From: a virus
Taxonomy: Duplodnaviria > Heunggongvirae > Uroviricota > Caudoviricetes
Virus record (IMG/VR): IMGVR_UViG_2547132488_000013
Reading direction: 5' to 3' (one strand)
DNA: 9,319 nucleotides
Both the position numbers and the translations under genes were made by a program. The notes beneath the pieces were generated by a model, which did no database searches, was not told where the DNA came from, and saw only the letters and a program-made list of their open reading frames with translations. Shown here in pieces: positions 6,074-8,904 of this stretch (its first letter is position 1; the number at the start of each line of letters is the position of its first letter).

Positions 6074-6294
6074 GAAGGAAACAAAACAGAAACAACAATT
6101 GCCGTTACCTGTTGTTACCATGGCAAGTAAACGTATCTCAGGCGAGCGCATTGCACCGTTCTGACGCAGATAAATTAGCCATGGATAGATGGTGCTGGCA
6201 ATAAAAAATAGCGTTTTCTTATCGGTGTCGGTAAGATTGCTGCGGGTGCTTGAGGCTGTCTGCCTCGGGCATGCCACTGTAAGGCAGGCAGAGA

Positions 6295-6397
6295 AAAGCC
6301 CCAGTTAACATTACGCGTCCGGCAAGACGCTTAACATTAATCTGAGGCTCCCTATGCATGACAACATCAGGTTAGCCTCTTACGTGCCGAAAGGCAA
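6295..6397 (-). ncRNA. sok: Candidate Sok-like antisense RNA locus (promoter plus expected transcript over the mok start)
   Basis: Minus strand reads TTGCCT (plus 6392-6397), 17-nt spacer, TAACCT (plus 6369-6374), predicting a leftward transcript from about 6362 across the mok start (6354-6356). This is where Sok maps in hok/sok loci. Transcript 3' end not identified. Confidence 0.3.
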
Positions 6398-6566
6398 GGA
6401 GAAGCAGGCTATGAAGCAGCAAAAGGCGATGTTAATCGCCCTGATCGTCATCTGTTTAACCGTCATAGTGACGGCACTGGTAACGAGGAAAGACCTCTGC
6501 GAGGTACGAATCCGAACCGGCCAGACGGAGGTCGCTGTCTTCACAGCTTACGAACCTGAGGAGTAA
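6354..6566 (+). CDS. mok: Mok-like in-frame N-terminal extension of hok (overlapping regulatory reading frame)
   Basis: ATG 6354 opens a 70-codon frame whose last 51 codons are hok. This matches the layout I recall for chromosomal mok/hok pairs such as mokC/hokC. Confidence 0.4.
   Translation: MHDNIRLASYVPKGKEKQAMKQQKAMLIALIVICLTVIVTALVTRKDLCEVRIRTGQTEVAVFTAYEPEE
6411..6566 (+). CDS. hok: Hok/Gef-family type I toxin (small membrane-depolarising peptide)
   Basis: 51 aa: MKQQKAMLIALIVICLTVIVTALVTRKDLCEVRIRTGQTEVAVFTAYEPEE. N-terminal TM helix and conserved RKDLCEVRIRTGQTEVAVFTAYE signature of Hok/Gef/RelF. SD AAGGAG (6396-6401) 9 nt upstream. Confidence 0.85.
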   Translation: MKQQKAMLIALIVICLTVIVTALVTRKDLCEVRIRTGQTEVAVFTAYEPEE

Positions 6567-6633: not shown

Positions 6634-6654
6634 TAACCCGCTTCGGCGGGTTTT
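6634..6654 (+). terminator. Rho-independent terminator downstream of hok
   Basis: AACCCGC-TTCG-GCGGGTTTTT: 6-bp stem (6635-6640 / 6645-6650), TTCG tetraloop, T-tract 6650-6654. Confidence 0.7.
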
Positions 6655-6781
6655 TCGTCGCATTATGAGGTTGTAATTTTAGCTACCATTAGACTATCCT
6701 AAGGATCTCAAACAGATCTATTTTGCATCAAATTTGGTGCATGGCTTTGCCAATAATCGGAAAACAAAAGGACTCATTAGT

Positions 6782-6961
6782 ATGAGCTGCCCACTCAAAA
6801 AACACACGCGGTTGAGTATTCCGCCTCGCGATAAAAGCGTTGTGGCAGTCCCTCGCCCAGCGATTGATGAAAACTGCGCACATCGTGAACAAGTGAAAAA
6901 TGCTTTTGATTTCGGTTTTTCTCGTTATGAGAAAGCCATGGAAGACCTCTCTAAAGTGTAA
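6782..6961 (+). CDS. Small ORF upstream of the Doc-family toxin; putative cognate antitoxin
   Basis: ATG 6782 with SD AAGGA (6768-6772), 59 aa. Ends 20 nt before the Doc-like gene, the usual antitoxin-first layout. The track start at 6734 is a TTG with no SD. No recognisable Phd signature; role inferred from position only. Confidence 0.5.
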   Translation: MSCPLKKHTRLSIPPRDKSVVAVPRPAIDENCAHREQVKNAFDFGFSRYEKAMEDLSKV

Positions 6962-6981
6962 TAGATGGGGGGCTGTACTCC

Positions 6982-7467
6982 ATGGCTGAGATTGTTGAAG
7001 GTGTGCATTACCTTACGGTTGATGATCTTGTTGAAATCAATCGTTCCCTAATTGAATTACAGACGCCAGATGAGCCCGTTGGTGTTCTGAGTCCAGATAA
7101 CTTAAGTTCTTCTCAGGCCCGTCCCAGCATGGTTCGATGGTATGAACAGATCAATGACATGTTTGTACTGGCATCGGTATTGATTGAAAGTCTGATTCAG
7201 AATCATCCGTTTGCTAATGCGAACAAACGAACAGCTATGATGGCTGGTTACGTCTTCTTGTTGTTGAATGGCTATGAGTTAACAGCACCAGGCGATGAAA
7301 TCGTGGAAATGGCAGAGGGACTGGCCTGCAAAACCTATACTCGAGAAGATCTCGAGAACTGGTTGTGTTATTGGTCTCGTGCGTATGACAGCCGGGAATT
7401 ATGTAAAACAGGCGCAACTATTGTTTTGTATGAAACTATCAAGCTTAAAATAGAACAGCAAAACTAA
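6982..7467 (+). CDS. doc: Doc (death-on-curing) / Fic-fold family toxin
   Basis: 161-aa ORF containing HPFANANKRTAMMAGYVFLLLNGYEL, which matches the Doc-type catalytic motif (compare P1 Doc HIFNDANKRTA). Confidence 0.8.
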   Translation: MAEIVEGVHYLTVDDLVEINRSLIELQTPDEPVGVLSPDNLSSSQARPSMVRWYEQINDMFVLASVLIESLIQNHPFANANKRTAMMAGYVFLLLNGYELTAPGDEIVEMAEGLACKTYTREDLENWLCYWSRAYDSRELCKTGATIVLYETIKLKIEQQN

Positions 7468-7483
7468 AGGTGCTTCCAATGAA

Positions 7484-7505
7484 AACCCGCTTCGGCGGGT
7501 TTTTT
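7484..7505 (+). terminator. Rho-independent terminator downstream of doc (same hairpin as the hok terminator)
   Basis: AACCCGC-TTCG-GCGGGTTTTTT: stem 7485-7490 / 7495-7500, T-tract 7500-7505; begins 17 nt after the doc stop. Confidence 0.7.
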
Positions 7506-7580
7506 GTTTTACGTATTCTGGTTTACAATCCACAGGCCAGCCTGAACAACTGGCACCTGCTGCGCCAGCAGAGAAAACCG

Positions 7581-7853
7581 ATGGCGCACAATACCAAACA
7601 TCACAATTCTGATACCGACCTTGCCAGCAGGCACGGGCGGCGTTCTCATACATTCAAATATGACTGGTACCAGCATGACCCATGCACTGAAGAACAGGCC
7701 GAATGGCTGATTCAGAACTACCGCAGGCGTGGGTACGAGTTTCAGAAAGACCTCAGCCCTGACTTCCGACACTGGATAATTTCTGTCAGGCTCCCTTATT
7801 CCGAACGCCCACCGCGTCCATCCCGCACATACCAGCAACGGATCTGGAGGTAA
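7581..7853 (+). CDS. Small basic protein in the position of Qin-prophage Rem (90 aa)
   Basis: ATG 7581 chosen because the track ORF from 7470 reads through the terminator hairpin. Lies immediately upstream of the YdfU-like gene, as rem does in Qin. Weak SD; start codon uncertain. Confidence 0.5.
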   Translation: MAHNTKHHNSDTDLASRHGRRSHTFKYDWYQHDPCTEEQAEWLIQNYRRRGYEFQKDLSPDFRHWIISVRLPYSERPPRPSRTYQQRIWR

Positions 7854-7854
7854 C

Positions 7855-8904
7855 GTGCGGGTATTAGTTCGACCTGCCCTGGTACCGGAACTCGGACTGG
7901 TGGTGCTAAAGCCGGGCCGCGAATCCATGCAGGTATTTCATAGCCCTCGAGTGCTGGTGGAGCCGGAACCGAAAAGTATGCGCGGTCTGCCGTCCGGAGC
8001 CGTCCCTGCCGTTCGCCAGCCGCTGGCGGAAGATAAATCATTACTGCCATTTTTCAGCAATGAGCGGGTAATTCGTGCTGCCGGTGGCACTGGTGCACTG
8101 TCTGACTGGCTCCTGCGTCATGTTAAATCCTGCCAGTGGCCTCATGGTGACTATCATCACAGTGAAATCGTCATACATCGTTACGGTACCGGCGCTATTG
8201 TGTTGTGCTGGCACTGCGACAACCAGCTGCGTGACCAGACCTCAGAATCACTTGAGCAACTTGCTCAACAAAACCTGGCAGCATGGATGATTGACGTCAT
8301 CCGTCACGCAATAAGCGGTGCGCAGGAGCGTGAATTATCGCTGGCTGAATTATCCTGGTGGGCTGTCTGCAATCAGGTGGCGGACGCACTACCGGAGGTA
8401 GTATTACGTCGTTCTCTGGGGTTACGTGCGGAAAAAATTCGCTCGGTGTACCGCGAAAGCGACATCATACCGGGAGAGCAGACAGCCACCAGCATACTGA
8501 AGCAGCGCACAAAAAATATTGTGCTATCGCCTCACGTCCACCAGCAACAGAACTCACCGCAGGAAAAGGCGGTGGTCAGCATTGCCGTTGATCCGGAGTC
8601 TCCGGAATCTTTCATGAAGCGACCTAAACGTCGCCGTTGGATAAATGAGAAATACACACGCTGGGTGAAGACACAGCCGTGTGCGTGTTGTGGTAAGCCA
8701 GCCGACGATCCCCATCACCTGATTGGTCATGGTCAGGGCGGAATGGGAACAAAATCCCACGATATTTTCACGCTACCGCTGTGTCGGGAGCATCACAACG
8801 AACTTCATGCGGATCCGCTGGCGTTCGAAGAAAAGCATGGTTCTCAGGTTGATTTAATTTTTCGTTTTCTTGATCACGCCTTTGCAACCGGTGTGCTTGG
8901 GTAA
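7855..8904 (+). CDS. YdfU-like prophage protein (DUF968-type) with C-terminal Cys/His-rich putative metal-binding nuclease-like motif
   Basis: 349-aa ORF, GTG start 4 nt after SD GGAGG (7846-7850). C-terminus CACCGKPADDPHHLIGHGQGGMGTKSHDIFTLPLCREHHNELH. Length and position (between a rem-like gene and rusA) fit Qin-type YdfU. Confidence 0.75.
   Translation: MRVLVRPALVPELGLVVLKPGRESMQVFHSPRVLVEPEPKSMRGLPSGAVPAVRQPLAEDKSLLPFFSNERVIRAAGGTGALSDWLLRHVKSCQWPHGDYHHSEIVIHRYGTGAIVLCWHCDNQLRDQTSESLEQLAQQNLAAWMIDVIRHAISGAQERELSLAELSWWAVCNQVADALPEVVLRRSLGLRAEKIRSVYRESDIIPGEQTATSILKQRTKNIVLSPHVHQQQNSPQEKAVVSIAVDPESPESFMKRPKRRRWINEKYTRWVKTQPCACCGKPADDPHHLIGHGQGGMGTKSHDIFTLPLCREHHNELHADPLAFEEKHGSQVDLIFRFLDHAFATGVLG

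Follow-up and report, generated by a model that had tools for sequence, protein, structure and literature searches.

A Doc-family toxin gene and a putative minimal antitoxin gene in a cargo cassette behind hok of a lambdoid prophage

Which protein would hold a Doc-family toxin in check when the small gene directly upstream of it resembles no named antitoxin? This question is raised by a locus in the virus record IMGVR_UViG_2547132488_000013 (Duplodnaviria; Heunggongvirae; Uroviricota; Caudoviricetes), a stretch of 9,319 nucleotides that is called the window in this study. In it, an open reading frame (ORF) of 59 codons and an ORF of 161 codons follow each other just downstream of a hok gene. 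The initial annotation of this DNA had read the pair as a Doc/Fic-family toxin with a possibly non-canonical antitoxin, and the positions it gave were found to be exact when both ORFs, the HPFANANKR motif, a GATCT-N5-AGATC palindrome and the adjacent hok gene were checked in the sequence. We believe that the best explanation of the locus, and a likely one, is an 849-bp moron with a two-gene type II toxin–antitoxin operon, which would encode Doc and a 59-aa antitoxin that docks on the toxin by its C-terminal helix.

Profile searches of both ORFs, which had been suggested as a check of the earlier proposal, gave a clear result for Doc and only phrog_2208 for the partner. The 161-aa protein matched TIGR01550 (DOC_P1) with 128.4 bits (cutoff 38.65), Pfam Fic (PF02661) with 46 bits (threshold 24) and phrog_577 'Doc-like toxin' at 1.7e-51. 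Judged by these profiles, the product of the ORF at 6982-7467 is a Doc (death-on-curing) toxin with the Fic fold, as the initial annotation had it. The Doc-specific motif HxFx(D/N)(A/G)NKR is intact as HPFANANKR at residues 75-83, and H75, F77, N79, N81, K82 and R83 were invariant among 22 homologues of 63-89% identity. Conservation among these homologues extends to C141, past the length of P1 Doc (~126 aa). The protein is very acidic, with a pI of 4.5 and a net charge of -12. A protein that is 100% identical to the window Doc is named 'type II toxin-antitoxin system death-on-curing family toxin' at NCBI, and PGAP labels Doc as a death-on-curing family toxin on the chromosomes of 124 of 5,426 complete E. 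coli genomes; Doc itself is routine and already annotated. The nearest solved structure is that of E. faecalis Doc, 9VZC_A (E=2.5e-13, 31% identity, 112 aligned columns), and the match to P1 Doc was weak (E=1e-5) and covered residues 50-115 only. As its family and the intact HxFxNANKR motif suggest, this Doc would be a Fic-fold kinase that phosphorylates EF-Tu and halts translation.

The 59-aa ORF matched phrog_2208, which is listed with unknown function, from end to end (1.4e-40). No match to the 59-aa protein was obtained in Pfam, NCBIfam, PADLOC or the PDB. The Phd/YefM, AbrB/MazE, ribbon-helix-helix (RHH) and YhfG families gave no Pfam match (E<=10) in the window protein or in any of 30 members of its family, and PDB sequence and profile searches with the protein or the family returned noise only. 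In an exhaustive profile search of 1.84 billion representatives, only 32 clusters (50% identity) were found for the partner family; the core is short in each of them, ~47-60 aa, and no cluster has an additional domain. Between the partner and its orthologues dN was 0.16-0.45 and dS was saturated, and dN/dS was therefore ~0.1-0.18 where it was computable. The C-terminal 26 codons evolve 3-5 times slower than the N-terminal 33. On these substitution rates, the 59-aa ORF is a real gene under purifying selection.

The two genes keep constant company. A scan with the Doc alignment, with one genome per species, returned 79 loci, 33 of which were gammaproteobacterial. In all 33 a partner homologue of 54-59 aa was found upstream of doc on the same strand, with its start position kept and its stop within ~50 nt of doc (mostly 4-30 nt); in the window the two genes have the same orientation and a gap of 20 nt. 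These loci came from Serratia, Providencia, Morganella, Yersinia, Citrobacter, Kluyvera, Hafnia, Xenorhabdus, Arsenophonus, Gilliamella and relatives, Pseudomonas, Stutzerimonas, Halomonas, Kushneria and Marinobacter, and thus span Enterobacterales, Orbales, Pseudomonas, Halomonas, Kushneria and Marinobacter. With this synteny (33/33), and with no Phd/YefM match in the 30 family members, the earlier placement of the upstream gene as an antitoxin that is not Phd has held up. In Proteus penneri (locus L028, 3977-4267, ~97 codons) and Arsenophonus nasoniae (L030, 3986-4249, ~88 codons), the doc frame is truncated and the partner is intact, which is the usual decay pattern of toxin–antitoxin pairs. 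A homologous pair is also present in the Pseudomonas phages Sirocco (Citexvirus; L090, 2450-3181) and LPPA56 (L091, 2501-3175). In both phages it lies directly downstream of a ~390-aa ORF, which is annotated as the tyrosine recombinase XerC in LPPA56 and as 'hypothetical protein' in Sirocco, and the Sirocco pair is near the genome end beside tRNA-Ser. Both genes of the LPPA56 pair are annotated 'hypothetical'. The copy in Salmonella phage SW-37 (L092, 1393-2191) was set aside, because both of its genes are split over several frames, probably by homopolymer sequencing errors.

AlphaFold2 (AF2) was used to model the partner from a 30-sequence alignment, and the mean pLDDT was 81. The model predicts a single amphipathic helix at residues 34-58 (nt 6881-6955) with a pLDDT of 87-91, leaves residues 1-33 without secondary structure, and contains no folded N-terminal domain. 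This N-terminal arm, basic with a pI of 9.4, contains five prolines and the conserved pattern R-L-x-I-P-P-R-D-K-(S)-x-V-A-x-P-R. Foldseek found no analogue of the 59-aa model in the PDB. A reading of 'KKHTRLSIPPRDKSVVAV' as a degenerate RHH was rejected, because RHH profiles gave no hit and the model has no helix A.

More distant Docs offered a comparison for the helix. In Streptococcus, Listeria and Symploca, the Docs returned by the scan described above (31-35% identity) are preceded by an antitoxin of 75-85 aa; the antitoxins of Listeria and Symploca match PF04014 (AbrB/MazE/SpoVT), and that of Streptococcus does so weakly (E=0.11), though sources name it as AbrB family. The C-terminal helix of these distant antitoxins is of one of two types, ...F-D-E-Y-D-D-V-F-K-A-L-V-E-K or ...R-Y-R-N-A-L-K-E-L-A-D-K. 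When the partner family was compared by hhalign with 23 AbrB-type Doc antitoxins including EFPhd, the antitoxin of E. faecalis, residues 36-57 fell on the C-terminal helix with 78.5% probability (P=1.7e-5). A smaller set of AbrB-type antitoxins gave 56% probability in the profile comparison, and P was 0.92 when the partner family was set against the Doc alignment as a control. The comparison with the 23 antitoxins supports a register in which H34-V59 of the window protein pair with H54-K79 of EFPhd with no gap, and the same register appeared in a single-sequence comparison that was not significant. We believe that homology of the helix to the C-termini of AbrB-type Doc antitoxins is probable, not proven. 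The swapped-hairpin domain of the AbrB type was not found in the window protein: PF04014 gave no match, and the N-terminal 33 residues are too short for it and are predicted without secondary structure. Because of the profile link of residues 36-57 to the Doc-binding helix, the 59-aa protein reads as a minimal, 'Phd-C'-like antitoxin. From alignment and model together, it is very probably a Doc antitoxin that has been cut down to a Phd-C-like helix and a short arm. The term 'non-canonical antitoxin' thus fits its N-terminal part, which has no known DNA-binding domain, and does not fit its neutralising part, where the helix looks conventional.

The locus can be compared with several known systems. 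The EFPhd-EFDoc system of E. faecalis (9VZC) has the antitoxin gene directly upstream, as in the window, and EFDoc, the nearest solved relative, shares the N-variant motif H-x-F-x-N-A-N-K-R (HCFYNANKR in EFDoc). The window Doc differs in a C-terminal extension of ~30 aa, which is conserved to residue 141. EFPhd is a protein of 79 aa with an AbrB-like 'beta-dome' DNA-binding domain (1-55), whereas the window protein has no such domain. According to Park et al. (NAR 2026, PMC13034048), the N-terminal 55 residues of EFPhd are the AbrB-like 'beta-dome' that binds a palindromic operator, EFPhd is ordered in 9VZC at residues 52-79 only, as a bent helix in the concave surface of EFDoc, and EFDoc is treated as a kinase with quantified activity.

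Similarly, the Phd-Doc pair of P1 (3K33, 3DD7) and a P1-like Salmonella pair (PMC9207808) are phage-borne two-gene operons with the antitoxin first. The P1-type Doc has the same motif as the window Doc, and EF-Tu is the target in that system. P1-type Phd neutralises by a C-terminal helix that folds upon binding, to which the window helix can be likened in its hydrophobic spacing: F42, F46, Y49, M53 and L56 of the window protein overlay the Salmonella Phd hot spots F56, M60, H63, L67 and L70, respectively, by inspection and with no statistics. P1 Phd binds DNA through an N-terminal domain of the YefM fold and has two operators, whereas the window partner has no PF02604 match; P1 is a plasmid prophage, whereas the window element is integrated. 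The Salmonella 'Phd-Doc' of de Castro et al. was considered as a member of the same family as the window pair and rejected, as it is a P1-like pair instead.

Ernits et al. (PNAS 2023, PMC10440598) showed that the 'Phd-C' element alone suffices to neutralise a Doc; they describe the element as portable and active in fusions with unrelated domains or with a SUMO tag, and they note that neutralising-element-only antitoxins exist. The Phd-C of that study is fused to a Panacea domain, whereas the window helix follows a conserved, unstructured, basic and proline-rich arm, and the likeness is one of concept. In the YhfG-Fic system (FicA/FicT) of Enterobacteria, a small (~55 aa), positively charged partner, which had no assigned domain at the time, lies beside a Fic-fold protein (Makarova et al. 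2009, PMC2701414). The toxin of that system has the AMPylating Fic motif GNGR, whereas the window Doc has NKR. FicA-type antitoxins carry the inhibitory motif (S/T)xxxE(G/N). By inspection, this motif is absent from the 59-aa sequence. Literature searches by accession and by topic found no study of the 59-aa/Doc pair. We believe that the pair probably works like Phd-Doc, and that what the antitoxin has in common with AbrB-type Doc antitoxins is probably the neutralising helix alone.

Several results weigh against the explanation proposed here, and they concern both the proteins and the DNA upstream of them. No recognised DNA-binding fold was found in the partner by AF2, Foldseek or Pfam. The hhalign comparisons of the partner family with the single EFPhd sequence and with the single P1 Phd sequence were not significant (1.4% probability for P1 Phd), and the search of 1.84 billion representatives returned short family members only and no AbrB-type proteins. 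The likeness of the C-terminal helix to AbrB-type Doc antitoxins, as far as the alignments go, is moderate. AF2 modelled Doc alone poorly (pLDDT 53, from a shallow alignment of 22 sequences), and that model was set aside. That Doc is toxic, that the partner neutralises it, that EF-Tu is the toxin's target and that DNA is bound are steps that we infer. In the control region, a scan with the sigma-70 consensus gave no promoter at threshold. The palindrome GATCT-N5-AGATC, with 5-bp arms, was at chance: when the 110 nt before the 59-aa ORF were shuffled so as to approximate their dinucleotides, 74% of the shuffles held an equal or better palindrome. The count of upstream palindromes in the family, given below, is inflated by related loci and a few terminators.

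The points on the protein side bear on whether the 59-aa ORF encodes an antitoxin at all. It could be an unrelated small phage protein or regulator, with a Doc that is non-toxic, self-limited or neutralised in some other way; we consider this very unlikely. A partner without database annotation and a helix similarity that is only moderate are what this alternative would expect, whereas it does not account for the co-occurrence, spacing and orientation in 33/33 distant gammaproteobacterial loci and in phages, for the bona fide AbrB-type antitoxins at the same position beside more distant Docs, or for the helix being the most conserved part of the partner.

With the antitoxin reading preferred, the proposed mechanism is as follows. 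The 59-aa product would be the cognate antitoxin of Doc, as its position, strict co-occurrence, predicted structure and profile similarity suggest. Its amphipathic helix 34-58 would dock in the concave surface of Doc, as EFPhd 52-79 and the C-terminus of P1 Phd do, and the antitoxin would do so without a folded N-terminal domain, unlike Phd (YefM fold), EFPhd (AbrB-like) and PanA (Panacea). The arm of ~33 residues would most likely contact DNA for autorepression or make an extra contact on the acidic toxin, both of which are speculative. A weak promoter belonging to the pair itself would drive it in the lysogen, and transcription that reads through from PR would add to its expression in lytic growth. 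The payoff may be addiction, which penalises loss of the prophage or the cassette, or abortive infection, or both.

How the operon would be regulated was examined from its upstream DNA. The doc terminator was found by scan, whereas for the promoter there were hexamers below the threshold and a conserved -10-like element only. Since no sigma-70 site reached the scan threshold, the arrangement TTGTAA-18-TATCCT is a promoter that we infer. In the loci of Citrobacter, Kluyvera, Hafnia, Izhakiella and a Salmonella phage, the counterpart of the element CATTAGACT in the alignment is TATTA(A/G)A(C/T)T. The palindrome GATCT-N5-AGATC had earlier been proposed as a possible autoregulatory operator; the palindrome is present, and it is not above chance. 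The imperfect palindrome TGCATCAAA/TTTGGTGCA lies 41-58 nt 5' of the start codon, with a rough chance estimate of ~0.1 per region. Autoregulation is weakly supported in the window, because there is no sigma-70 promoter and the palindrome is at chance.

The wider family gave a different result. Perfect palindromes with arms of at least 7 bp were found in 14/32 family upstream regions, and shuffles gave 3.1 +/- 1.6 (maximum 8); the 14 include five closely related Providencia/Morganella loci and a few terminators of upstream genes. This enrichment suggests that autorepression is common in the family, though its members have no recognisable DNA-binding fold. In Providencia/Morganella (L004, L006, L009, L010 and L017), the sequence TTGACT-TAATGTAAC-TTAA-CTTACATTA-TAAC has arms of 7-9 bp and lies ~90 nt upstream of the small gene; a palindrome with 8-9-bp arms is thereby placed between the TTGACT -35 and the -10. 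This strong palindrome, which overlaps the promoter, is a much better operator candidate than any in the window. In Citrobacter, Kluyvera and Salmonella phage SW-37 (L008, L016 and L092), GGATGT-N4/5-ACATCC is found ~60 nt upstream of the small gene, with identical arms and a spacer that varies in sequence and length, and it may act as an operator or as a hairpin in the leader RNA. It was also considered as a counterpart of GATCT-N5-AGATC with compensatory changes, which was rejected because the alignment puts the two at different positions. From these upstream sequences, autoregulation is plausible for the family.

The same results bear on a second alternative, in which the pair is a toxin–antitoxin module and the 59-aa protein is a pure neutraliser with no transcriptional role. 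Expression would then come from PR read-through, from a constitutive weak promoter or through a leader RNA hairpin, and the arm would be a toxin contact or a protease degron. The missing DNA-binding fold or family, the window palindrome at chance and the missing consensus promoter agree with it; an acidic Doc (pI 4.5, -12) and a basic arm would fit an electrostatic toxin contact, and antitoxins that consist of the neutralising element only are known (Ernits 2023, PMC10440598). We hold this to be somewhat unlikely, in view of the enrichment of upstream palindromes in the family, which overlap good -35/-10 elements in several genera, and of the fact that no third regulator gene is conserved in the cassette. 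In a further reading, which we consider unlikely, the 59-aa protein would be a separate design of Doc antitoxin, made of a neutralising helix and a conserved, basic, proline-rich arm that does not fold by itself. The arm would gain sequence-specific DNA binding only when a Doc dimer holds two antitoxins (toxin-scaffolded operator binding and autorepression), or else it would block the active site of Doc, which is left exposed by the helix in EFPhd-EFDoc.

The pair occupies a sharply bounded piece of DNA. A 24-nt hairpin, AACCCGCTTCGGCGGGTTTTT(C/T)GT, occurs at 6635-6658 and at 7484-7507, 849 nt apart; the pattern was found exactly twice in the window, with 0 expected. The segment from ~6656 to 7504 is a discrete cargo cassette ('moron') of 849 bp between conserved phage genes, in a lambdoid prophage whose early-right (nin) region holds it at the hok terminator. 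When the two flanks were joined artificially, the junction matched E. coli TUM1880 contiguously, with 98.6% over 281 nt, which represents the empty site; in TUM1880 (L094, 1392-1985) the downstream genes come directly after hokD. A three-way alignment placed the divergence exactly at the hairpin, and sequenced phages matched the two flanks only. The filled site was found in 124/5,426 complete E. coli genomes. The gene order in the E. coli carriers was always hok, 59-aa gene, doc, (small ORF), DUF968, RusA and Q, in mosaic lambdoid prophages. One carrier of an identical Doc cassette is a Shiga-toxin prophage, with RIP and SLT_beta genes past Q (L087, 13147-14382). The Doc pair was essentially absent from plasmids.

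The gene directly upstream of the cassette (ORF 6354-6566) matched Pfam HOK_GEF with 81.6 bits, and Rfam placed the sok/hok regulatory region at 6244-6416 (109.6 bits). The Doc pair is therefore adjoined by a complete type I locus, hok/sok (6244-6566), and two unrelated toxin–antitoxin systems lie back to back. A gene with KilA-N and BstA_C domains, for a BstA-type abortive-infection protein, was seen just upstream of hok in L085 and L087 (6155-6928, minus strand), where BstA, hok/sok and Doc are clustered together. The features of the locus are listed in Table 1.

Table 1. Positions of the features of the cassette and its borders in the window
Feature	Position	Strand	Remark
59-aa ORF	ATG 6782 to TAA 6959-6961	+	putative antitoxin gene, 59 codons
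161-aa ORF	ATG 6982 to TAA ending 7467	+	Doc-family toxin; HPFANANKR at nt 7204-7230
Shine-Dalgarno AAGGA of the 59-aa ORF	6768-6772	+	9-nt spacing to ATG; read from sequence
Ribosome-binding site of doc, run of six G	6967-6972	+	within the 20-nt intergenic gap; from sequence
Left 24-nt terminator hairpin AACCCGCTTCGGCGGGTTTTTCGT	6635-6658	+	hok terminator, left cassette junction
Intrinsic terminator	7481-7507	+	right 24-nt hairpin copy, right junction; terminator scan, repeat, junction alignment
Candidate weak promoter TTGTAA (6671-6676), 18 nt, TATCCT (6695-6700)	6671-6700	+	by eye
-10-like element CATTAGACT	6687-6695	+	overlaps candidate promoter; alignment of upstream regions
Palindrome GATCT (6704-6708)-N5-AGATC (6714-6718)	6704-6718		two GATC Dam sites; possible operator or leader hairpin
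Imperfect 18-bp palindrome TGCATCAAA/TTTGGTGCA	6724-6741		8/9 arm positions pair; alternative operator candidate

The slot after the hok terminator holds different cargo in other prophages. For example, a second prophage in one Doc-carrying genome has a second hok that is followed by HicA/HicB (L084, 13708-14809), and in another E. coli the slot is taken by a hypothetical ORF of 130 aa that is unrelated (L093, 491-883). A cargo slot of this kind, with HicAB or another gene elsewhere, would fit a cassette that acts mainly in anti-phage abortive infection and not in addiction: infection would deplete the labile antitoxin, and the freed Doc would stop translation. That hok/sok and BstA adjoin in some carriers (L085, L087) points the same way, and prophage type II toxin–antitoxin modules are often defensive (PMC9207808, PMC10440598). 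We hold this alternative, too, to be somewhat unlikely. PADLOC-DB 2.0 gave no defence-model match, and Doc had only weak Fic-domain hits to the PDC-S23/S05 candidates (E of at least 0.0018); the literature searches found no published test of Doc-based defence, and the founding Doc system, that of P1, is a maintenance system. For the cassette as a whole, a role in prophage maintenance or defence is plausible.

As a variation on a familiar theme the pair is modest, and specialists would hardly be surprised by it. Its novelty lies in the antitoxin: a family of ~55-59 aa that has no name, is covered by no model in Pfam or NCBIfam, and corresponds to a PHROG of unknown function. The family accompanies a whole gammaproteobacterial Doc subfamily, which includes copies carried by Shiga-toxin prophages, by other lambdoid prophages and by temperate phages of Pseudomonas. 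If the antitoxin role is confirmed, thousands of 'hypothetical protein' annotations could be named, the portable neutralising element 'Phd-C' would have a natural example in minimal form, and the regulation of an operon whose antitoxin lacks a recognisable DNA-binding domain would become a tractable question. With the clean pairs of filled and empty sites in E. coli, it can be tested directly what the cassette does for prophage retention or phage defence.

Two backbone genes follow the cassette in the window. The first (7581-7853) encodes a small protein of phrog_1212, with unknown function in PHROG, and the second (7855-8904) encodes a DUF968 protein whose C-terminal part weakly matches the HNH-like PF16784 (E=1.2e-4). 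Within the cassette, a 14-nt inverted repeat (86% complementary) joins 6846-6859 in the small ORF and 7310-7323 in the doc coding region, 450 nt apart, and it is probably due to chance.

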